Assembly (NCBI GenBank): GCA_051003575.1
Contig: JBPCLE010000208.1
Span: 1 to 49,982, forward strand
Source of the DNA: Acidimicrobiales bacterium
Lineage (GTDB): Bacteria; Actinomycetota; Acidimicrobiia; Acidimicrobiales; AC-14
Length of the DNA: 49,982 nucleotides
Direction: 5' to 3'
Part shown: positions 6,062-15,871 of the stretch, in pieces
Position numbering within the stretch: position 1 is the first letter of the stretch
Layout: every line of letters begins with the position of its first letter
The notes under the pieces: generated by a model
What the model was told of the DNA's origin: nothing
What the model saw: the letters and a program-made list of their open reading frames with translations, nothing else
Database searches by the model: none
Made by a program: the position numbers and the translations under genes

Positions 6062-6988
6062 TCACGCCGGGGCCAGCGCCACCTCTTCGTCCCAGTTCTC
6101 CGCGGTCTGGATGACCCAGAACGCGGCGAACAGGCCGATCTCCCAGGCTTCGAGGAGGAAGGTCGTGTGGTCGCGGCCCAACTGGAACACCTGGATGGCG
6201 ATGCCGCCGGCCGACATCGCCACGGCGACGATGGTGTACAACCGGAACAGGGTCCGATTGGCGTCTCTGCGGTGATCGGTCGCCTTGCCGGCCACCGCCA
6301 GGGTGAGGGCCACGAACATCAGGACGGCCGCAGGGGTGTGTGCCTGGGTCGGGAAGCTGTCCCAGACGCTGATGAGGATCCAGCCAAGGGCCAACGCCCC
6401 CGCGGTGACCAGAAGGGACACCGTCGTTCCCGTTCCAACCGCCGCCATAGCGTTGTTCACGCCGCGGTTGACGAAGAGGGCGATGACCAGGGCGACGGCC
6501 AGCCCGAGCGAACCGGCGATCAGCAGCGCCCGGAAGTTGTTGCCGACGATCGAGACGATGACGTCCGCCGGGATCCGACCGTCCTCGGAGAGCAGCGTCG
6601 ACGGTCTGCACCGGGGAACCGTCGCTTCCGATGCGCCGGTGCCTGTCGTGAAGACACCCAGGTCTCCCGTCGGCACAATGGCCACGACCGGAGCGAACAT
6701 GCCGGCGACGTTCAGGCAGATGTCCTCGTACGAGCGGCGGCCCTTGATCATGATGAGGGCGAAGCCGATGACCATCAGGCTGCCCACGAAGGCGGCCCGG
6801 ACGGGCGTGTAGTAGTAGGCGCTGATCGAGGTCTGCAGGCAGGCTCTCCCCAGGCGTCCGACCTGCCAACGCTCCCACCCGATCGCGGCTCCCAGCAGGA
6901 CAACCGCACCGACCATCCCGATGCGGAGGTACCGGTAGGTCTTGATCGCATCCGCCGACCGGAGTCTCTCCCGAGTCCCCCCTGCCAT
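6062..6988 (-). CDS. Hypothetical polytopic integral membrane protein
   Basis: Multiple hydrophobic helices, e.g. 'YLRIGMVGAVVLLGAAI', 'FVGSLMVIGFALIMI', 'LLIAGSLGLAVALVIALF'. Start set at ATG 6988 (MAGGTRERL...). The longer track ORF (to 7360) would overlap guaB3. Confidence 0.75.
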   Translation of the reverse strand: MAGGTRERLRSADAIKTYRYLRIGMVGAVVLLGAAIGWERWQVGRLGRACLQTSISAYYYTPVRAAFVGSLMVIGFALIMIKGRRSYEDICLNVAGMFAPVVAIVPTGDLGVFTTGTGASEATVPRCRPSTLLSEDGRIPADVIVSIVGNNFRALLIAGSLGLAVALVIALFVNRGVNNAMAAVGTGTTVSLLVTAGALALGWILISVWDSFPTQAHTPAAVLMFVALTLAVAGKATDHRRDANRTLFRLYTIVAVAMSAGGIAIQVFQLGRDHTTFLLEAWEIGLFAAFWVIQTAENWDEEVALAPA

Positions 6989-7166
6989 CGCGCCGTCCTC
7001 TCGCGGTCCGCACTGCCTGGGAAGCGCCCTTGCTAGCAGATTGCCGCCCCCGGCCGCAGGGCCCGCGGGCGGCACGCTCACCTGTCCTGCGCCCGGGCTG
7101 GCCGGATGCCTCGGATCGGCGCCGCACGCTGAGGTCATGGGGCCGGGACCCCGGTATTGTCGACAA

Positions 7167-8330
7167 ATGGCAGAGACTGAGATAGGGATCGGGAAGTCTG
7201 GCCGGCGGGCGTACGGGTTCGACGACATCGCCATCGTCCCCAGCCGCCGCACCCGTGACCCCGAGGACTGCGACATCTCGTGGGAGATCGACGCCTTCCG
7301 CTTCGACCTGCCCCTCATGGCCTCGGCCATGGACGGCGTGGTCAGCCCGGCCACGGCCATCGCCCTGGGCCAGCTCGGCGGGGTGGGCGTCCTGAACCTC
7401 GAAGGCCTCTGGACCCGCTACGACGACCCGGAGCCCCTGCTCAGCGAGATCGCCCTGCTCGACGCGGACAAGGCCACCCTGCGCATGCAGGAGATCTACT
7501 CCGAACCCATCAAGGAGGAGCTGGTCGGGCGGCGCGTCGCCGAGATCAAGGCGGCCGGCGTCACGTCGTGCGCGTCGGTCACGCCCCAGCGCACCACCCA
7601 GCTCATGCGGGCCATCCTCGATGCCGAGCTCGACCTGCTGGTCATCCAGGGTACGGTCGTGTCGGCCGAGCACGTCTCGAAGACGGTGGAGCCGCTGAAC
7701 CTGAAGCGCTTCGTGCGGGAGCTGGAGATCCCGGTCATCGTCGGTGGCTGCGCCTCCTACAAGAGCGCCCTCCAGCTCATGCGCACCGGCGCCGTCGGCG
7801 TCCTGGTGGGCGTCGGGCCGGGCCACGCCTGCACCACCCGGGCCGTGCTCGGGGTCGGCGTCCCCCAGGCCACGGCCATCGCCGACGCCGCCGGCGCCCG
7901 CATGCGCCACCTCGACGAGACCGGTGTCTACGTCCACGTCATCGCCGACGGCGGCATGAGCACCGGGGGCGACATCGCCAAGGCCATCGCCTGCGGGGCC
8001 GACGCGGTCATGATCGCCTCCCCGCTGGCTGCAGCCCACGAGGCGCCCGGCCGGGGCTACCACTGGGGTATGGCCACCTTCCATCCCACCCTGCCCCGCG
8101 GCGCCCGGGTGCGGACCACCCCCCGCGGCACGCTGAGTGAGATCCTCACCGGGCCGGCGCACGAGAACGACGGCCGCCTCAACCTCTTCGGTGCCCTCAG
8201 GACCTCCATGGCCACCTGCGGCTACGAGACGGTCAAGGAGTTCCAGAAGGCCGAGGTCATGGTCGCCCCCGCCCTGCAGACCGAGGGTAAGAGCCTCCAG
8301 ATCGCCCAGGCCATCGGCATGGGGGCCTGA
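7167..8330 (+). CDS. guaB3: GuaB3-type IMP dehydrogenase-related protein (no CBS domains)
   Basis: '[14 protein letters not shown]', '[12 protein letters not shown]' and '[24 protein letters not shown]'. At 387 aa the size and N-terminus match the GuaB3 class. Start set at ATG 7167 (MAETEIGIG...). Confidence 0.88.
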
Positions 8331-8338
8331 GGGGCCGG

Positions 8339-9142
8339 TTGCGCGACGTCACGGCGGTGGCCGGCGGGAACCATGCGGCCCACCTGGCCGCGGCCGAGGC
8401 CTGCCACGCCGCCGACGGCTCCGGCCGGTTGCGGGCGTTCCACGAGCTGGTCGCGGCGTCGCCGGCCAGCACGAACGCGTCGGCCGGAAGGTTGAGTGCC
8501 TACGACCACGCTGGCGGGGTCGTCGACACACGATCGACGCACCCCGACGAGGGATCGTTCGAGGCCAGCCAGGGTGGCGCGCTCGCGGGACGGGAGGGCT
8601 TCGAGGACCTCTGGGACCACGGGCGGCGCTTCGTGTACGGCGCAGTGAACGCCGGAGGGATGGGCGCCGAGCCCTTTGGCGATTTCTGCCTGGTGTTCCG
8701 GGACTGTGGGGAGGACGCCACCGACGCGCTGGCCGTGTTCCCCGAGGACTCGGTGAGCAGGTACGCCGATGCCGTCGGAGCCGTCGATGCCGACCGGGCG
8801 GCAGGGGAGGCGACGTCGTGGGACGACCGTGGCCTGCTCGCCGTCGCCGAGCTCGGCTCGGACGCGCTCGCCGCCTCGGACACGGACTGGCCCGGGGTGG
8901 TCTGCTCGGGCCGCGACTACCTCGAAGTGGTCATGGCCGGGAGCTTTCCCCCGCCGACGCTGTCGGAGATCCGGGTTCGATCGTCTGTCCGTGGAGAGGC
9001 GCACCACTACTGGGAGCAGGCGCAAGAGGGTGTTCGGCTCTCGGCTCGGGCCCGCACGGTCGCCGCCGCCTACGATGTCGTGCTGCGCTGGCGCGACTAT
9101 CAAGGCTGCGCCATCACTGAAGTGCCCGAAGGAAGGCCCTGA
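8339..9142 (+). CDS. Hypothetical acidic protein (267 aa), first gene of the coupled trio
   Basis: TTG 8339 (alternative GTG 8357), 9 nt after the guaB3 stop. No TM segment and no motif I recognise. Its stop overlaps the next start ('TGATG', 9140-9144). Confidence 0.65.
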   Translation: MRDVTAVAGGNHAAHLAAAEACHAADGSGRLRAFHELVAASPASTNASAGRLSAYDHAGGVVDTRSTHPDEGSFEASQGGALAGREGFEDLWDHGRRFVYGAVNAGGMGAEPFGDFCLVFRDCGEDATDALAVFPEDSVSRYADAVGAVDADRAAGEATSWDDRGLLAVAELGSDALAASDTDWPGVVCSGRDYLEVVMAGSFPPPTLSEIRVRSSVRGEAHHYWEQAQEGVRLSARARTVAAAYDVVLRWRDYQGCAITEVPEGRP

Positions 9143-9657
9143 TGAGCCTGATCACACTGGTGTCGATGGTTCCTTCCGGTGAGATCTTCGTCACGCGCGA
9201 CGCTTCCGGCCGGCTGCAGCTCCACAAGTCCCTCGGCGCGGGCGGATCCGGCCCGATCGACGAGCGGACGGCCGACCTGGCGGTGGCCAAGCACGGGTTC
9301 GTCGCCATCAACCGCGTCTTCGCCAGCTGGATCGCGCTCGACGACTTCCTCGAGGAGCGGGCGGCCGAGGCGGTGCCGGCGGTCGTGGTCGACCGCGACC
9401 GGCTCGGGCTCGAAAGCGCCCGAGGCCTGCTCGACGACACCTGCCGGTGCTTGGTGGGCGAGGGCCAGGGCGAAAGGGCGCGACGTCTGGCCCTGAACCT
9501 GCTGCGGGTCCCGTCGGTCCTGGCCGACCGACCGACCCATGACGCAGTGGTTGCCTTCCTAGATGGGCTGGCCCGGCCTGTGCTGATGCCACCACCCGAG
9601 CCGGCATCGCCGCTCCACGCCAGGGCACGGGAGGCCTGGGGCACGCTCGCCGCCTGA
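9142..9657 (+). CDS. Hypothetical protein (171 aa), second gene of the coupled trio
   Basis: The ATG overlaps the upstream stop by 1 nt, and the stop lies 3 nt before the next ATG. No recognisable motif. Confidence 0.65.
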   Translation: MSLITLVSMVPSGEIFVTRDASGRLQLHKSLGAGGSGPIDERTADLAVAKHGFVAINRVFASWIALDDFLEERAAEAVPAVVVDRDRLGLESARGLLDDTCRCLVGEGQGERARRLALNLLRVPSVLADRPTHDAVVAFLDGLARPVLMPPPEPASPLHARAREAWGTLAA

Positions 9658-9660
9658 GCC

Positions 9661-12129
9661 ATGCGGACGATCACCTTCTACTCCTACAAGGGGGGGACGG
9701 GCCGCACGCTCCTGATGGCCAACATGGCGGTGCTGGCCGCCGGGCTGGGCCGGAAGGTGGTGGCGCTCGACTTCGACCTCGAAGCGCCCGGTCTGCCCTA
9801 CAAGCTGTTCCCTGGTACCCCGCCCCGAGCCGACGGCCTGGTGCGCTGGCTGCTCGACACGGTGGGCCCCGGCCCGTCCCCGTCGTCGCTCGACGACTAC
9901 CTGGTCGACGTGCCGCTGGCGGGCGGGGTGCGCGCCGGCGGGTGGCTCAAGCTCATGCCCGCAGGCCGGGCACCGTCACCCAACTACTTCCAGGACCTGC
10001 GCCGCCTCCAGCTCGACCGGCGCCTCGACGACTACTCCGCCCTCGACGCCTTGGTCGACCTCCAGGAGCGCCTTGCCGATGATCTCGAGGCTGACTACCT
10101 GCTGATCGACGCCCGGACGGGCATCACGTCGACTAACAAGGTGACAACCCACGTGCTGGCCGACGAGGTGGTGGCCCTCACCCTCGACACGCCCGAGCAG
10201 CTCGACGGCACCCGGAGCGTGCTGCGCAGCCTGGTGCCCATGGTGTCGGTGCGCACCGAGAAGCCCATCGACCTGCATGTGGCGGTGAGCCGGGTGGCCC
10301 CCCGTCCGGCCGGCGCCGGCATCTACGCGGCGACGGACGGCGAGCGTTCGATGCAGGAGGGCATCGTGGCGTTCCTCACCGAGCCGGCGCAGCCGGTGCG
10401 CAACACGATCGACCTCGACCGGGTCCACCTGCTCCACACCGACCTCCGCCTGAACCGATCTGAGACCCTGTTCTGCGCCGGGCCGGGGGACTGGACTCGC
10501 TCGGCGTTGCAAGTCGACTACCAGCGGGTGGCGGCCGCCCTCTTCGGGCCTGCGGTCATGGATGCCGCGGTCGAGGCCATGGCGGCCGCCGACCCGGGCC
10601 GCCGGATCGAGCTGGGCCACTTCTTCGCCTCGCCCGAGATGGTGATAGACGCCCGCGGCGAACAGCTCAGCGAGCGGCCCGACCCCCGGAGCGCGGATGT
10701 CGGCCTTGAGGACCAGGTGGCCCTGCTGCGGGCGTCGGCCGGGACCGACCCCACCGTGGTCCCCGATCTGGCGGCCCTCCTCCTGCGGGTGTCACGGCAG
10801 CTCCGCGAGCTCGGGCGGCGGGAGGAGGCGGTCGCACCCGCCGAGGAGGCGGTCGAGCACTATCGAGGGCTGGCCGCCACCAACCCCGACCGGTTCGAGT
10901 CGGGCCTGGCCGGCGCGCTGAACGACCTGTCGGTCCGCCTGGGCGCGGTGGGCCGGTGGGAGGAGGGCCTGGCTGCCAGCGAGGCGGCGGTCGAGGTGTA
11001 CCAACGGCTGGCAGCGACCAACCCTGCGGCCTTTGAGCCCGACCTGGCCGCCTCGCTCAACAACCTCTCGGTTCGGCTGGGCGCGGCGGGCCGGCAGGAG
11101 GAGGGTCTGGCCACGAGCGAGGCGGTAGTCGAGGTGTTCCGGCGGTTGGCCTCGGCCAACCCGGCGGCGTACGAGGCCGATCTCGCCCTGGCGCTCAACA
11201 ACCTGTCGAACGGCCTGGGCGAGGCGGGCCGGCGTTGGGAGGGCCTGGCCGCCATCGAGGAGGCAGTGGCGGTGTACCGCCGACTGGCCTCGGCCAACCC
11301 GGCGGCCCATGAGCCCTACCTGGCCGTCTCGCTCAACAACCTGTCGAACCGCCTGGGCGAGGCGGGCCGGCGGGAGGAGAGCCTGGCCGCCATCGTGGAG
11401 GCAGTGGCGGTGCGCCGCCGGCTGGCGGCGGCCGATCCGGCCGCCCATGAGCCCGATCTGGCCCGCTCGCTCAATAGCCTGTCTGTTCACCCGGGCGAAA
11501 TGGACCGGCAGGAAGTTGGACTGACTGCCGGCGACGAGGCGGTGGGGATGTACCGCCGACCGGCGGCGGCCGGCCCCGCGGCCTACGAGCCCGATCTGGC
11601 GATGTCGCTCAACAACCTCTCGAACCGCCTGGGCGAGGCGGGTCGGCGGGAGGAGAGCCTGGCCGCCATCGAGGAGGCGGTGGCGGTGTACCGCCGGCTG
11701 GCGGCGGCCAACCCTGCGGCGCACCTGCCCGACCTGGCCATTTCGCTCAACAACCTCTCGAACCGACTGGCCGAGGCGGGCCGACGCTACGAGGGCCTGG
11801 CCGCCATCGAGGAGGCGGTGGAGGTCCGCCGCCGGCTGGCTGCCGCCAACCCGGCCGCCTACGAGCCCGACCTGGCGACGTCGCTCAACAACCTGTCGAA
11901 CCGCCTGGGCGAGGCGGGCCGGCGCGACGAGGGCCTGGCCGCCATCACCGAAGCGGTGGAGGTGCGCCGCCGGCTGGCCGCCGCCAACCGGGCGGCCTTC
12001 GAACCCGACCTGGCCCGCTCGCTCAACAATCTGGCCACCCGCTTGGGCGAGGTGGGCCGAGACGACGAGTCTGCGCAGGCCCGGCAAGAGGCCGAGGCCA
12101 TCGAACGGCGGCTGCTTACCTCGCCATGA
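9661..12129 (+). CDS. ParA/MinD-like P-loop ATPase with a 'KGGTGR' deviant Walker A, fused to a ~10-unit TPR-like repeat domain (822 aa)
   Basis: N-terminal 'TFYSYKGGTGRT' (Walker A, with Arg in place of the second Lys; aag 9688 and cgc 9703). 'ALDFDLEAPGL' (A'-like) and 'YLLIDARTGI' (Walker B). The C-terminal half is ten 46-aa repeats of the 'PDLAxSLNNLSNRLGEAGRREEGLAAIEEAVAVYRRLAAANPAAHE' type. Confidence 0.85.
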   Translation: MRTITFYSYKGGTGRTLLMANMAVLAAGLGRKVVALDFDLEAPGLPYKLFPGTPPRADGLVRWLLDTVGPGPSPSSLDDYLVDVPLAGGVRAGGWLKLMPAGRAPSPNYFQDLRRLQLDRRLDDYSALDALVDLQERLADDLEADYLLIDARTGITSTNKVTTHVLADEVVALTLDTPEQLDGTRSVLRSLVPMVSVRTEKPIDLHVAVSRVAPRPAGAGIYAATDGERSMQEGIVAFLTEPAQPVRNTIDLDRVHLLHTDLRLNRSETLFCAGPGDWTRSALQVDYQRVAAALFGPAVMDAAVEAMAAADPGRRIELGHFFASPEMVIDARGEQLSERPDPRSADVGLEDQVALLRASAGTDPTVVPDLAALLLRVSRQLRELGRREEAVAPAEEAVEHYRGLAATNPDRFESGLAGALNDLSVRLGAVGRWEEGLAASEAAVEVYQRLAATNPAAFEPDLAASLNNLSVRLGAAGRQEEGLATSEAVVEVFRRLASANPAAYEADLALALNNLSNGLGEAGRRWEGLAAIEEAVAVYRRLASANPAAHEPYLAVSLNNLSNRLGEAGRREESLAAIVEAVAVRRRLAAADPAAHEPDLARSLNSLSVHPGEMDRQEVGLTAGDEAVGMYRRPAAAGPAAYEPDLAMSLNNLSNRLGEAGRREESLAAIEEAVAVYRRLAAANPAAHLPDLAISLNNLSNRLAEAGRRYEGLAAIEEAVEVRRRLAAANPAAYEPDLATSLNNLSNRLGEAGRRDEGLAAITEAVEVRRRLAAANRAAFEPDLARSLNNLATRLGEVGRDDESAQARQEAEAIERRLLTSP
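10762..12126 (+). repeat. In-frame 138-bp (46-aa) tandem repeat array, ten units, encoding the TPR-like solenoid
   Basis: Unit starts occur every 138 nt from 10762 (10900, 11038, 11176, 11314, 11452, 11590, 11728, 11866, 12004). Units 4, 5, 7, 8 and 9 share long near-identical DNA stretches. Unit 6 is divergent. Confidence 0.9.
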
Positions 12130-12138
12130 GTCACCGGT

Positions 12139-12357
12139 TCAGAACGTGAGCTGGAGCGTGAAGCGCCAGAACCACCACGTGAAGATGATGCATGCGATGC
12201 CGAGGATGAGCAGGAGGAAGGCCATCAACGACAGGGCCACGGCCCGGCCGGTCGGTAGTTGCGGGTCGCACATCCTGACGCCGGCCAGGCCGGCGCCGGC
12301 CAACGAAACCGCGCCGAACACGGCGACTGCGGCGACCCTGACCGCGCTGGCGTCCAT
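12139..12357 (-). CDS. Small two-TM membrane protein (72 aa), paralog A
   Basis: 'MDASAVRVAAVAVFGAVSLAGAGLAG...LSLMAFLLLILGIACIIFTWWFWRFTLQLTF'. Start set at ATG 12357. Same architecture and C-terminal motif as the neighbouring gene. Confidence 0.6.
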   Translation of the reverse strand: MDASAVRVAAVAVFGAVSLAGAGLAGVRMCDPQLPTGRAVALSLMAFLLLILGIACIIFTWWFWRFTLQLTF

Positions 12358-12424
12358 GCACCCAATGCTCCGCCACCAGCGGCCCGCCGACCATGGGGGT
12401 TTGCCCTCATCGCCGCGAATCCCC

Positions 12425-12631
12425 TCAGAACGTGAAGTTCTCGGTGAAGTCCCACATCCAGTAGCCGACGAGGGCGATGAAGAGGGCGACGAGGAGCAGG
12501 AGGCCGGCGAGGATCGACAGCTCGACCCGGCGAGCCGTCGGGGCCTCGGGTGCGGTGGCCTTGGCGACGGCGGCGTACGCACCGGCGAGCGGCAGGGCGG
12601 CGACGAGCAGGGAAACGACGATGAACTCCAT
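12425..12631 (-). CDS. Small two-TM membrane protein (68 aa), paralog B
   Basis: 'MEFIVVSLLVAALPLAGAYAAV...LSILAGLLLLVALFIALVGYWMWDFTENFTF'. Start set at ATG 12631. Confidence 0.6.
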   Translation of the reverse strand: MEFIVVSLLVAALPLAGAYAAVAKATAPEAPTARRVELSILAGLLLLVALFIALVGYWMWDFTENFTF

Positions 12632-12770
12632 GGGCCCATCGTCCGCCCCGGCCCGGCACGGGGCCATGGGGGCTGGCCCTCAATCTGAGGTCGCCGGCGC
12701 CATGGGCGTCGCCGCGTCGGCTGATCACCGTCGGCGTGGAGGTGCCCGGCTCGCGAAACGGTGGGCCTAA

Positions 12771-12858
12771 TCGACGATTTGGCTCACACTTGGTGCTTGT
12801 ACGACGATAAACTGCACCAGATCATCGTTATCTGACAATTTCTTGCGGGAGGGAGCCC
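12771..12858 (+). promoter_or_regulatory. AT-rich leader/promoter region of the Fic gene
   Basis: I counted 37 G+C in 80 nt (46%) over 12771-12850, against roughly 70% in the flanks. It contains an imperfect palindrome 'ttgtacgacgataa...ttatctgacaa' and the RBS 'gggaggga' before GTG 12859. Confidence 0.4.
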
Positions 12859-14343
12859 GTGGAAGCAGAGGAGATCATCTTCGCGGGTCAGGAGACTTCG
12901 TCGCGACTGTCCCGCCGGGTTGGCCGCGGCGACCTGCGCCGGCTCGCCGCCGGCGTCTACACCACCAACCTGCACGATCCCGCCGCGCAGGTGTGTCGCC
13001 GTAATTGGATAGGAATCACTGCGCACTTCTGTCCCGGCGCCGTCATCGCCGACCGATCGGCTCGTACCGGCCAGCCCGAGCCCGACGGGAGCCTCTTCGT
13101 GGTGGCCGAGCGCGCCCGTCCCGTTCGCCTTCCCGGCCTCACGGTCAACCCCCGCCCCGGTCTCGGTCCGCAGGGCGACGACATGGCGTACCCCCACGGG
13201 CTTTGGATGAGCTCCCGCCCACGAGCGCTGGTCGAGAACCAACGGACATCGCGGTCAGTGAAGGGCCGGCCGTCTCGGACCCTGAGCGAGGCCGAGCTCG
13301 GCGACTGGATCGACTCCCTGGTGCGCAGCTTCAGCGCCGACAAGGTGGCAGAGATGAGACGCCGCGCCCAGGCGATCGCCGAGGAGTCAGGCCTGAAGGA
13401 GGCCGGACGACGAACGAATCGGATGATCGGCGCCGCGCTGCAGACGCAGAGCCTTCCGACGGCTTCACCGCTTCTGTCGGCCCGGCAGACAGGCGTTCCC
13501 TACGACCCTGCTCGGGAGCAGCTGTTCGATCGGCTCCATGACGCTCTCCAGGCCAGCGCGCCGATGACGATCATCGCGTGGGCGGACGACGCGGAGCGGC
13601 GGGCGACGCTGCCGTTCTGGGAGGCGTACTTCTCGAACTTCATCGAGGGGACCGAGTTCACCGTCGACGAGGCGGTGGCCATCGTCTACGACAACCGAAT
13701 CCCGGCTGGGCGCCCGTTGGATGCCCACGACATCGTCGATACCTACCGCGTGCTCGCTGACGACACGGAGATGAGCCAACGCCCCTCGACGTTCGCCGAG
13801 TTCGAGGAGACGCTTCTTCGTCGCCATCGCCGGATCATGCTGGCCCGTCCCGACGTCGGTCCGGGCGCGTACAAGGAGTCACCCAATCGGGCTGGCACGA
13901 CGTTGTTCGTGGCCCCCGAACTCGTTCGGGGCACCCTTCTTCGTGGCTGGGACCGCCTCTCGCAGCTCGCCAACCCCGTTCACCGCGCCTTCTTCGCCAT
14001 GTTCCTGGTCGCCGAGGTCCATCCGTTCGCTGACGGCAACGGACGCACTGCACGCATCATGATGAACTCCGAGCTTCACGCCGCCGGCGAAGGTCGTGCC
14101 ATCATCCCGATCGTCTACCGGAACGAGTACCTCGACGCGCTCCGCAGACTGAGCCGCGAGGGCGATCCTGGGCTTCTGCTTCGTGTGCTGGACTTTGGCC
14201 GCCGGTACACGGCGGCCATCGACTTCTCGGCCATCGACGTCTCGCGCCAGCAGCTCGATGCGACCAATGCCTTCATCTCGCCGGACGAGGCATTGACGCG
14301 CGGCCGATACCTCACGATCCCTGGCGCCGCCGACTCTCCCTGA
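12859..14343 (+). CDS. Fic/DOC family protein with an AbiEi-like N-terminal domain
   Basis: Fic motif 'HPFADGNGRTAR' (14020-14055). Internal inhibitory-helix motif 'SNFIEG' (13633-13650). The N-terminal 'SSRLSRRVGRGDLRRLAAGVYT' resembles the wHTH N-domain of AbiEi antitoxins. Confidence 0.88.
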   Translation: MEAEEIIFAGQETSSRLSRRVGRGDLRRLAAGVYTTNLHDPAAQVCRRNWIGITAHFCPGAVIADRSARTGQPEPDGSLFVVAERARPVRLPGLTVNPRPGLGPQGDDMAYPHGLWMSSRPRALVENQRTSRSVKGRPSRTLSEAELGDWIDSLVRSFSADKVAEMRRRAQAIAEESGLKEAGRRTNRMIGAALQTQSLPTASPLLSARQTGVPYDPAREQLFDRLHDALQASAPMTIIAWADDAERRATLPFWEAYFSNFIEGTEFTVDEAVAIVYDNRIPAGRPLDAHDIVDTYRVLADDTEMSQRPSTFAEFEETLLRRHRRIMLARPDVGPGAYKESPNRAGTTLFVAPELVRGTLLRGWDRLSQLANPVHRAFFAMFLVAEVHPFADGNGRTARIMMNSELHAAGEGRAIIPIVYRNEYLDALRRLSREGDPGLLLRVLDFGRRYTAAIDFSAIDVSRQQLDATNAFISPDEALTRGRYLTIPGAADSP

Positions 14344-14493
14344 CGACCGGCGCCGCCTGTACCGGCGGCTGTCGAGCAGGACGACACGAGCAGGGCTTCG
14401 ATGGGCCGATGGTCGTTATGCCCGAGGACGGGAGCCACGGTGGTTGGCCCCCGATCCACCCGGTTCAAGGTCAGCGGCCGATCGGTCGACAAC

Positions 14494-15513
14494 ATGAGCA
14501 GGCGAGCCGGCATCGGACGGCGCCGGCCCGGTGATCGCCGGGCGGGAGGTGGGACGGACGTGGCATCGGCGCTCAGAGGACCGTGGAGCAGGTTTCGCTC
14601 GCTGGCCGGATGGATGCAACTGGCGCTCGGCGTCGTGACGGCCATGGTCCTGCTGTCGCCGTTCACCTCCGATGGGGTGCAGACCGTGGCCGCCGGCGGT
14701 ACGCCGGCGACGAACAGTGTCGTCACGACCGCGGTCCTTGTCACCAAGACCGCGCCCGCCACAGCACCGGCGCCGACCGCGATCCCCGCCGGCGAGGACA
14801 CCGCGGTGGTGCGGGTCGTCGACGGCGACACGATCATGGTCACCGGCGGCACGCGGGTCCGACTCATCGGCATCGACACACCCGAGACGGTCGACCCGTC
14901 GAGCCCGGTCCAGTGCTTCGGGCCCGAGGCGACCCGGTACGCGAACGCGCTCCTACCCGTCGGCACCCCGATCCGGCTCGTCTACGACGTCGAGCGCCTC
15001 GACCGCTACGGGCGGACCCTGGCCTACGTCTACCGGACGGGTGACGGCGTCTTCGTGAATCTCGCCATGGCCCGCGACGGCCTTGCCGCGCAGCTCACCG
15101 TCCCCCCGAACGTCGCCCATGCCGAGGAGATCCGGGTGGCCGTGGCTGAGGCCCGTACCGCCAACCTCGGGCTCTGGGCCGCGTGCCCGCCGGCGGCGGC
15201 CGTGGCCCCGGTCCCGACAACGCGTGCCCCGATCGCGCCGTCGCCCACGACCGCCGCCCTGGCACCGAGGCTCGTGGCCCCGACGCCGACCACGGCGGCG
15301 CCGAGGCCGACCACCACGCCCGCGGCGCCGGCGAGCGGGTGCCACCCGTCCTACGCCGGCGCCTGCGTGCCCATGGGGTTCTCCGACGTCGACTGCGCCG
15401 GCGGCAGCGGCAACGGGCCGGGCTACGTCAGCGCCAAGAACTTCCAGGTGGTCGGGCCTGACCTCTACCGGCTCGACTCCGACGGGGACGGGATCGCCTG
15501 CGAGTCGAGGTGA
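14494..15513 (+). CDS. Secreted thermonuclease (SNase fold) with a P/T/A-rich linker and a C-terminal Excalibur Ca-binding domain
   Basis: 'VRVVDGDTIMV...RVRLIGIDTPE', 'DRYGRTLAYVY' and 'GLWAACP' (SNase). 'LDSDGDGIACE' (Excalibur). Signal/TM 'WMQLALGVVTAMVLL'. The ORF opens at 14401; ATG 14494 is preferred. Confidence 0.85.
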   Translation: MSRRAGIGRRRPGDRRAGGGTDVASALRGPWSRFRSLAGWMQLALGVVTAMVLLSPFTSDGVQTVAAGGTPATNSVVTTAVLVTKTAPATAPAPTAIPAGEDTAVVRVVDGDTIMVTGGTRVRLIGIDTPETVDPSSPVQCFGPEATRYANALLPVGTPIRLVYDVERLDRYGRTLAYVYRTGDGVFVNLAMARDGLAAQLTVPPNVAHAEEIRVAVAEARTANLGLWAACPPAAAVAPVPTTRAPIAPSPTTAALAPRLVAPTPTTAAPRPTTTPAAPASGCHPSYAGACVPMGFSDVDCAGGSGNGPGYVSAKNFQVVGPDLYRLDSDGDGIACESR

Positions 15514-15532
15514 CCTCGGCTCGGCCCGGCCG

Positions 15533-15871
15533 TCACTCGGCCTGCATCGCCCCGTGCGCGGCTCCATGGGCCACGACGGCCGCCAGCCCGCCCGCCACCA
15601 GCAGCGGGAGCCCGATCGAGAAGATGGCCAGGATCCCGACAGCTAGGAGGCCGGCGGCCGCCGGCCACAACAACGCGGCCCGCCGACGCGGGGTCACGCG
15701 CAGCGAGCCGAGCCCGATGGCCACGCCGGCGGCGCCGATGACCACGAGGAAGTGCATGACCACGCCGACGATCGGGTCGTCGCCCTCAGCCAGGATGATG
15801 GAGAGGTACGCCACCTCCATGACCAGGGCGATGCCGGCCCCGACGAGGCCCGCAGGAGACGACTTGAGCAT
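15533..15871 (-). CDS. Hypothetical membrane protein (112 aa, ~4 TM)
   Basis: Hydrophobic helices such as '[20 protein letters not shown]', '[18 protein letters not shown]' and '[22 protein letters not shown]'. Confidence 0.6.

Follow-up and report, generated by a model that had tools for sequence, protein, structure and literature searches.

A recurrent three-gene cassette joining a predicted ADP-ribosyltransferase to a KGGVGR-motif ATPase-TPR protein, a candidate conflict system

The cassette and its recurrence

We analyzed a stretch of 49,982 nucleotides (nt) from an Acidimicrobiales bacterium (GenBank assembly GCA_051003575.1, contig JBPCLE010000208.1), called here the window. It carries a cassette of three consecutive open reading frames (ORFs), the third of which encodes an ATPase head followed by tetratricopeptide repeats (TPRs). 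A preliminary description had presented the cassette as a translationally coupled operon in which two unassignable proteins accompany the ATPase, and had proposed for it a role in conflict or defence. The genes of this trio are as follows.

8339-9142, forward strand: ORF1, TTG start, 267 amino acids (aa), a predicted effector with an ADP-ribosyltransferase (ART) fold.
9142-9657, forward strand: ORF2, 171 aa, a fast-evolving protein in the position of an adaptor or antitoxin.
9661-12129, forward strand: ORF3, 822 aa, a KGGVGR-type ATPase head with a TPR array.

The sequence confirmed the coupling of the three same-strand genes. The stop codon of ORF1 and the start codon of ORF2 share one nucleotide (TGATG, 9140-9144), and a gap of 3 nt (9658-9660) separates ORF2 from ORF3. 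The G+C content at third codon positions (GC3) is of the coding type in ORF1-ORF3 (0.86-0.91), with slightly higher values in neighbouring core genes (0.92-0.97). The TTG start of ORF1 is supported because ten homologues align with it from the first residues of ORF1 onwards.

The three genes are one self-contained, horizontally mobile and close-to-obligate module that is inherited together. Their order is conserved in more than 60 loci. When the search was anchored on the ATPase, 21-22 of 82 KGGxGR loci had ORF1 and ORF2 immediately upstream; when it was anchored on ORF1, 38 of the 39 metagenomic loci that have 900 nt or more of DNA downstream contained the complete trio in order. Five further loci, L001 and L002 among them, all carry the trio in order and tightly coupled. 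The only genes common to different loci are ORF1, ORF2 and ORF3, and the flanks are unrelated. The pairwise distance matrices of the three genes are correlated (rho 0.83-0.86, Mantel permutation p<=0.001), and the trio-associated ATPases are confined to one half of the family tree. One ORF1-anchored locus (L136, 1760-2552) had room for the ATPase and lacked it; no ORF follows ORF2 there and the DNA contains repeated segments, so that a break in the assembly or degradation of the copy is the probable explanation.

The module thus recurs outside this genome, as the preliminary description had expected, with the same order in dozens of unrelated genomes. It was found in Actinomycetota, Acidobacteriota, Planctomycetota, Gamma- and Deltaproteobacteria, Myxococcota, Omnitrophota and Nitrospirota, and also in Armatimonadota, Bacteroidota, a Cyanobium and a single Methanophagales archaeon; the bacterial phyla number more than ten. 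Its distribution is patchy, and the trio of Methylobacterium currus adjoins a DDE transposase. The trio is absent from the named systems of PADLOC v2, and a literature search on KGGVGR, PDC-M28, and MinD/ParA combined with TPR and ART found no description of it.

Predicted properties of the three proteins

ORF1 belongs to an unannotated family that no Pfam, NCBIfam or PADLOC model covers. Neither ORF1 nor any of 105 diverse relatives gave a sequence match in these collections or in the PDB, and in the RefSeq isolates that were checked both ORF1 and ORF2 are annotated as "hypothetical protein". A profile search of 1.84 billion representatives placed the family in 449 clusters at 50% identity. 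Its members are nearly all stand-alone proteins of about 270-280 aa; a homologue of 499 aa (P0197) was considered as a fusion and rejected, its N-terminus being of low complexity and its start probably mis-called. ORF1 is indeed very acidic, with an isoelectric point (pI) of 4.7. Lysine is absent from ORF1 and from the TPR region; this was dismissed as a signal, given that most genes of the genome encode only 0.5-2.7% Lys.

The fold of ORF1 was predicted with AlphaFold2. A model built from a shallow alignment of 11 sequences was unusable (predicted local distance difference test, pLDDT, 58.7), and we used instead the model obtained from an alignment of 105 sequences (pLDDT 97.4, predicted template modelling score 0.93). 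The best match in a Foldseek search of the PDB was SopF (7dn8/7dn9; E 3.2e-4, probability 1.0, TM-scores 0.52/0.48). Several DarT structures (7yk3, 7omy, 7omv) formed the second-best group, yeast Tpt1 was also found, and cholera toxin appeared at lower probability. All PDB matches with a Foldseek probability >=0.5 belong to the ADP-ribosyltransferase superfamily (SopF, DarT, Tpt1). Among viral models, phage polyvalent proteins and DUF3626 proteins were among the strongest matches (best E 2.9e-6), and most of the strong matches in that library are unnamed proteins. From these models we predict that ORF1 adopts the split beta-sheet fold of ARTs, with SopF/DUF3626 and DarT as its nearest neighbours in structure. 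It can no longer be called unassignable.

SopF, a DUF3626 protein (PMC6682159), is an ADP-ribosyltransferase; its triad is I-Y-E, and ARF GTPases activate it (PMC10333799). It depends on a P-loop NTPase partner, as the predicted enzyme of the trio may do, but it is a secreted effector that targets eukaryotes, its activating GTPase comes from the host, and its identity to ORF1 is 10%. The conserved residues of ORF1 are R85, Y100-G, D-S138 and Y-x-E196. DarT, the toxin of DarTG, is likewise an ADP-ribosyltransferase and acts in phage defence; ORF1, however, has no sequence match to DarT (DUF4433), and the trio has no match to a macrodomain antitoxin and consists of three genes, one of them for an NTPase. 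The candidate catalytic residues of ORF1 lie at the following positions.

8591-8926, forward strand: the whole candidate catalytic constellation (R85, Y100-G101-A102, D137-S138, Y194-x-E196).
8591-8593, forward strand: R85, candidate catalytic residue.
8636-8644, forward strand: Y100-G101-A102, candidate catalytic motif.
8747-8752, forward strand: D137-S138, candidate catalytic motif.
8918-8926, forward strand: Y194-x-E196, candidate catalytic motif.

R85 and E196 are invariant in the 105 sequences, and Y100, G109, G114 and C117 are conserved in at least 90% of them. Across phyla S138 and Y194 are nearly invariant, and Y100-G-A, C117, D-S138 and Y194-x-E196 are conserved. In the model, Y100, C117 and E196 fall on predicted beta-strands. 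The YGA and YLE motifs of ORF1, which also lie on predicted strands, resemble the HGS and YNE motifs carried by PARPs (PMC7955679). In the superfamily a catalytic triad of the H-Y-E or R-S-E type is placed in the NAD pocket, and R85, Y100, S138 and E196 are candidates for roles at such a site.

ORF3 is divided into three regions, with the motifs of a SIMIBI/ParA-type NTPase in the first.

9661-10233, forward strand: aa 1-191, MinD/ParA-like P-loop domain, KGGVGR-motif variant (NF047398).
9676-9708, forward strand: Walker A, FYSYKGGTGRT (aa 6-16).
9769-9792, forward strand: switch I, DFDLEAPG (aa 37-44).
10099-10122, forward strand: Walker B, LLIDARTG (aa 147-154).
10234-10761, forward strand: aa 192-367, middle region linking ATPase and TPR array, conserved in the trio clade.
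10762-12129, forward strand: aa 368-822, TPR array of ten 46-aa units, TPR_10 / kinesin-light-chain type.

Residues 1-191 match NCBIfam NF047398, a known domain family named "KGGVGR-motif variant AAA ATPase"; the score is 127.8 bits (cut-off 90), and the match covers positions 2-189 of the 190 in the profile. The ATPases of distant trios score 144-150 bits. More than 939 word-index matches were found, some of them already named KGGVGR-motif ATPase by NCBI or UniRef, and contigs taken from one genome per species contain at least 593 loci. ORF3 also matches the PADLOC candidate PDC-M28B (3.5e-20), over profile positions 129-316 of 438 only; PDC-M28B has an extra N-terminal part of about 128 residues, and the A component of PDC-M28 was not found at the trio. 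The ATPase is therefore not the undescribed oddity that it had been taken for. NF047398 is defined by the ATPase domain only, and the family recurs with TPR repeats and conflict-type partners.

The motifs SYKGGTGRT, DFDLEAPGL and LLIDARTG, and the SIMIBI/ParA-type class that had been read from them, were borne out. The KGGxG[K/R][ST] loop aligns residue for residue with that of archaeal MinD structures (SGKGGTGKT); R15 takes the place of the canonical P-loop lysine, K10 is the signature lysine, and the switch I and Walker B aspartates are kept. K10, G11, G12, G14, R15, D37, D39, R152, T153 and G154 are invariant in 32 ORF3 homologues, and the arginines invariant in the family are R15, R152, R189 and R211. 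ORF3 does not have the deviant Walker A with both lysines (KGGxGK[ST]): whereas MinD, ParA and Soj have Lys in the P-loop, every member of the ORF3 family has Arg there, and KGG[VT]GR[ST] is present in all 80 loci. Apart from this change, ORF3 keeps the residues equivalent to the nucleotide and dimer contacts of MinD. By analogy with P-loop K-to-R mutants in general, we infer that ORF3 is an ATP-binding switch with slow or no hydrolysis.

The scores of ORF3 lie below the cut-offs for MinD (TIGR01969, 32.6 vs 201.75), ParA (NF041546, 16.8 vs 180) and Pfam CbiA (24.6 vs 25.4), and its BcsQ and VirC1 equivalog scores are also far below theirs. In the inspected loci, and in line with the preliminary description, homologues of the ATPase-TPR protein do not sit in partition or division contexts, and trio loci have no MinE/ParB partner and no parS. 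The comparison with STAND sensors in the preliminary description holds only as an analogy of architecture; the NTPase matches of ORF3 are all of the CbiA/ParA/MinD type, with none to NB-ARC, NACHT or AAA_16, and no STAND domain is present.

In the middle region, R211, H259 and D286 are invariant in the trio-associated clade. Matches to ORF3 extend to residues ~294-360 in the loci of this clade, compared with only ~191-216 in other clades. The ten TPR units of 46 residues, which form an array of the peptide-binding type, were borne out by the Pfam match to TPR_10 (4.7e-28), by a listing of the repeats and by Tandem Repeats Finder, which detected a DNA repeat with a period of 138 nt (8.4 copies, 79% identity, 10905-12059); TPR_12 and kinesin light chain TPR matches were also obtained. 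The number of TPRs varies in the family. Unit 5 (aa 604-649, window 11470-11607; LNSLSVHPGEMDRQEVGLTAGDEAVGMYRRPAAAGPAAYE) is degenerate, with prolines and a broken consensus in an otherwise homogeneous array.

ORF2 is the least conserved component, with a mean pairwise identity of 29% vs 52% for the ATPase head. It consists of a small N-terminal domain, with the motifs L.A...G...V...L..PP and AV.HGF...F..W, and a helical C-terminal half. Direct searches find few relatives; profile iteration recovers ORF2 in every trio locus, and all complete loci have an ORF2-family gene immediately after ORF1 and immediately before the ATPase gene. No match to a Pfam, NCBIfam or PADLOC family was found for ORF2, its distant members included. 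PDB matches of ORF2 to designed helical bundles were rejected as a reflection of composition, and the PDB sequence search gave nothing specific for ORF1 or ORF2.

The C-terminus of ORF2 (TLAA-COOH; 9643-9654, forward strand) is part of a hydrophobic tail ending in small residues that is found across the family. The last two residues are Ala-Ala in 21 of 65 family members, compared with 2.1% of background ORFs, and Ala or Ser is the last residue in 41 of the 65. Nearly all ORF2-family proteins have such a short tail, for example ...TLAA, ...ILAA, ...VFAPAS and ...PMGSAA. Judged by its sequence, the tail could serve as an ssrA-like degron for ClpXP or offer the TPR array a C-terminal peptide to bind.

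Related loci and genomic surroundings

In a variant locus (L086, 4394-6815) the gene after an ORF1-like gene encodes a fusion of an ORF2-like N-domain (E 2.6e-30) with the start of a SNF2-like helicase (..LIADDVGLGK). The helicase replaces the KGGVGR ATPase, and genes for Metallophos and VWA proteins lie upstream of the pair. The predicted ART and its adaptor can thus be connected to an NTPase of another kind, and this joining of the pair to a helicase suggests that ORF1 and the N-domain of ORF2 form a portable effector module.

Other clades of the KGGVGR family (groups L007, L014, L017, L020, L021, L023, L034, L038; L027, L030, L031, L036, L043, L075; L033, L035, L037, L039, L041, L044; and L055-L082) each have their own two coupled genes, about 1 kb upstream of the ATPase. 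The typical pair is a small unknown protein followed by an antitoxin-type protein with an Xre/MqsA-like helix-turn-helix (HTH). In Bacteroidota the upstream gene matches PADLOC PDC-M63A, and in Frankia and Lentzea the partner of the ATPase is the TIR-like FxsC. In hhalign comparisons ORF1 was unrelated to the upstream partner families of the other clades, and ORF2 was unrelated to their HTH proteins; the C-terminal half of ORF2 gave a distant match to the C-terminal part of its positional counterpart in a sister ATPase clade (probability 84%, E 7e-6). The recurrence of clade-specific upstream pairs favours a conflict or toxin-antitoxin-like role for the ATPase family as a whole.

In the window the cassette lies between a gene of the IMPDH family (Pfam IMPDH) and guaA. 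The TGA stop codon of the former, at 8328-8330, is 8 nt before the TTG of ORF1, and not 9 nt as had been given. By sequence reading, a Shine-Dalgarno-like GAGGGG (8329-8334, forward strand) overlaps this stop codon and is followed, after 4 nt, by the ORF1 start. A search of 7900-12900 gave no sigma-70-like promoter, so that in the window the trio probably shares a transcript with the IMPDH-family gene before it. The longest ORF of that gene (462 aa, 6942-8330) overlaps an ORF for a membrane protein of 432 aa on the opposite strand (6062-7360, reverse strand). Its Pfam IMPDH match begins only at residue 91, and for this reason translation probably begins near M76 (about 7167).

The interval between the IMPDH-like gene and guaA also contains, after the trio, a Fic-domain protein (494 aa, 12859-14343) and a nuclease, probably secreted, with SNase and Excalibur domains (370 aa, 14401-15513). 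Small hydrophobic membrane ORFs lie on the reverse strand at 12425-12667 and 15533-15871. The whole stretch 8339-15700 has the appearance of DNA inserted between the IMPDH-like gene and guaA; a search of the window for boundary markers of an island found no tRNA and no integrase. The Fic and nuclease neighbours had been taken as a sign of a conflict neighbourhood. They are no evidence for one, since no other locus has the same flanks and housekeeping genes prevail there.

In two loci of Methylococcaceae type (L009, 3652-6498, and L112, 749-3568) uvrA immediately precedes the trio, on the same strand. This placement parallels that after the IMPDH-like gene in the window. The cassette may preferentially insert at the 3' ends of housekeeping operons. 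PADLOC matches to mad3, mad8 and AriA gave an apparent enrichment in defence genes near the trio, which was rejected; by Pfam these proteins are UvrA, ABC transporters and histidine kinases.

Possible mechanism and alternatives

The closest functional analogue of the trio is CmdTAC (PD-T4-9), in which the toxin is an ADP-ribosyltransferase, the antitoxin is degradable and a chaperone detects a phage capsid protein; the toxin is released when the antitoxin is degraded (PMC11618068). Both are three-gene operons in the order toxin, antitoxin and third component, with an ADP-ribosyltransferase that in the trio is predicted. The stability of the CmdTAC antitoxin is governed by a C-terminal extension; the conserved hydrophobic tail of ORF2, ending in AA or AS, is a candidate for a comparable element. 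The two systems differ in the third component, which is a SecB-like chaperone in CmdTAC and a KGGVGR MinD/ParA-like ATPase with TPR repeats in the trio, and ORF1 and ORF2 match no PADLOC model, those of CmdT and CmdA included. A second analogy is with STAND, Avs and NLR-like sensors, in which, as in the trio, an NTPase switch is followed by a repeat sensor and the toxic effector is separate or fused. STAND proteins oligomerise, whereas the NTPase of ORF3 is of the SIMIBI class, which dimerises, and the resemblance is one of analogy only.

We think it somewhat better than an even chance (roughly 0.55) that the trio is a toxin-antitoxin-sensor conflict system with a logic like that of CmdTAC, built from an effector, an adaptor and an NTPase-sensor. 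ORF1 would act as a toxic NAD-dependent effector. ORF2 would bind it through the N-terminal domain, neutralising or tethering it, and would dock on ORF3 by its helical half, by the hydrophobic ...AA tail, or by both. ORF3 would be an ATP-dependent dimerising switch whose TPR array recognises a trigger, for instance a protein of a phage, so that a ParA-like TPR NTPase would take the place of the SecB-like chaperone. The trigger, or a change of nucleotide state, would release or destabilise ORF2, possibly by exposing the LAA-like tail to ClpXP, and the freed ORF1, by modifying nucleic acid or protein, would bring either the cell or the invader to arrest. The match to PDC-M28B, the toxin-antitoxin-like and TIR-like partners of sister clades, the DDE transposase neighbour, the patchy distribution, the varied contexts and the variable number of TPRs all point towards conflict. 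A conflict-type role, as first proposed, remains the most plausible reading, but the argument from the neighbourhood that accompanied the proposal is unsupported.

Several results weigh against a conflict system of this kind. The TM-scores of the structural matches of ORF1 are only about 0.5, and no member of its family (n=105) matches any Pfam family of the ART clan at E<=1 (DarT, DUF3626, ART-PolyVal and others). ORF2 matches no known family. The Arg at the P-loop Lys position of ORF3 may mean that the NTPase does not hydrolyse, and the MinD/ParA-like modules of actinobacterial conflict systems have been predicted to be inactive (Kaur et al., 2020; PMC7159879); the window contains no vWA-MoxR pair. 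Housekeeping genes (UvrA, ABC transporters, histidine kinases, Suf) predominate in the flanks of 27 other loci, with specific defence-family matches in only about 5 of 120 flanking proteins, so that the enrichment beside defence genes that might have been expected was not found. No member of the trio is part of a catalogued defence system. Searches with tblastn found nothing in plasmids with the window and Methylobacterium copies of ORF1, and nothing in phages with the window copy.

The housekeeping flanks accord better with a second route, which we regard as unlikely, suggested by the likeness to SopF and ARF. The trio would then be an NTPase-activated ADP-ribosyltransferase used in endogenous regulation. 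ATP-bound ORF3, with ORF2 as a bridge, would switch ORF1 on allosterically, as ARF-GTP does with SopF and cholera toxin, and a host protein would be modified reversibly according to the ligand read by the TPRs. SopF, the closest structural relative, does require a P-loop GTPase (PMC10333799); the trio is coupled to the 3' ends of core genes (uvrA in L009 and L112, the IMPDH-like gene in the window), and defence islands are not enriched around it. Reversibility, on the other hand, is unsupported, as no ADP-ribose hydrolase (macrodomain, ARH or NADAR) is linked to the trio. The very patchy phyletic spread and the unrelated contexts are unlike those of a core regulatory pathway, and the sister ATPase clades carry toxin-antitoxin-like and TIR-like partners.

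DraT ADP-ribosylates an arginine of NifH, a SIMIBI-class ATPase, and this is a precedent for a different and quite improbable arrangement in which ORF3 is the substrate. ORF1 would modify ORF3, for example at a conserved Arg, and the output would be whatever the TPR-ATPase scaffold controls. ORF3 is of the same MinD/NifH-type class, it offers the invariant R15, R152, R189 and R211, and its gene is obligately linked to that of ORF1 and co-evolves with it. Such a system would lack an effector, however, since ORF3 has no recognisable output domain beyond the TPRs. Other ATPase clades have partners that are not ARTs, and the single ORF1-ORF2 pair joined to a SNF2-like helicase points to ORF1 itself as the portable effector.

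Less probable still is a positioning system of the ParA/MinD type, with ORF3 as the ATPase, ORF2 as a stimulating partner like MinE, ParB or McdB, and ORF1 as cargo or cargo adaptor. A small partner gene beside the ATPase is typical of ParA-like systems, and ORF3 has MinD/ParA-like motifs, including the signature lysine. Its scores nevertheless stay far under the MinD and ParA cut-offs given above, and its P-loop lysine is always Arg. A membrane-targeting helix is absent from ORF3, in which no DNA-binding feature was noted either, and ORF2 lacks a basic N-terminal peptide. The loci show no division or partition context, and the predicted fold of ORF1 is an enzyme fold typical of toxins. Chance adjacency, or an annotation artefact of a GC-rich genome, was considered because high-GC DNA yields many long spurious ORFs, several antisense ones in the window among them, and it is refuted by the coding GC3, the homologues of matching length, the gene order in more than 60 loci, the co-evolution and the high-confidence model of ORF1.

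A toxin-antitoxin-sensor system thus remains our preferred reading. A broader proposal, which we put forward tentatively and hold to be less probable, is that KGGVGR ATPase-TPR proteins are a wide class of NTPase immune sensors outside STAND, each clade with its own toxin-adaptor pair. In the trio a SopF-like ART of a new family would be gated by the nucleotide state of ORF3, as a prokaryotic and self-encoded counterpart of the ADP-ribosylating toxins activated by ARF, and the ...AA tail of ORF2 would serve as TPR ligand or degron.

What was known of this locus is the ATPase domain family, itself uncharacterised; what is new is the unannotated family of predicted ADP-ribosyltransferases and the pairing of the trio. 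As the cassette lies outside defence islands, it is the kind of system that guilt-by-association searches miss. If our reading is true, the trio would add to the ADP-ribosyltransferases a new and widespread family with about 450 clusters (50% identity). It would offer a compact three-protein model for the gating of an ADP-ribosylating toxin by an NTPase. The logic of toxin, antitoxin and third component would have evolved more than once, with different sensors. The KGGVGR variant of ParA/MinD would gain a function, and immune sensing by an NTPase with repeats would extend beyond STAND to the SIMIBI class.

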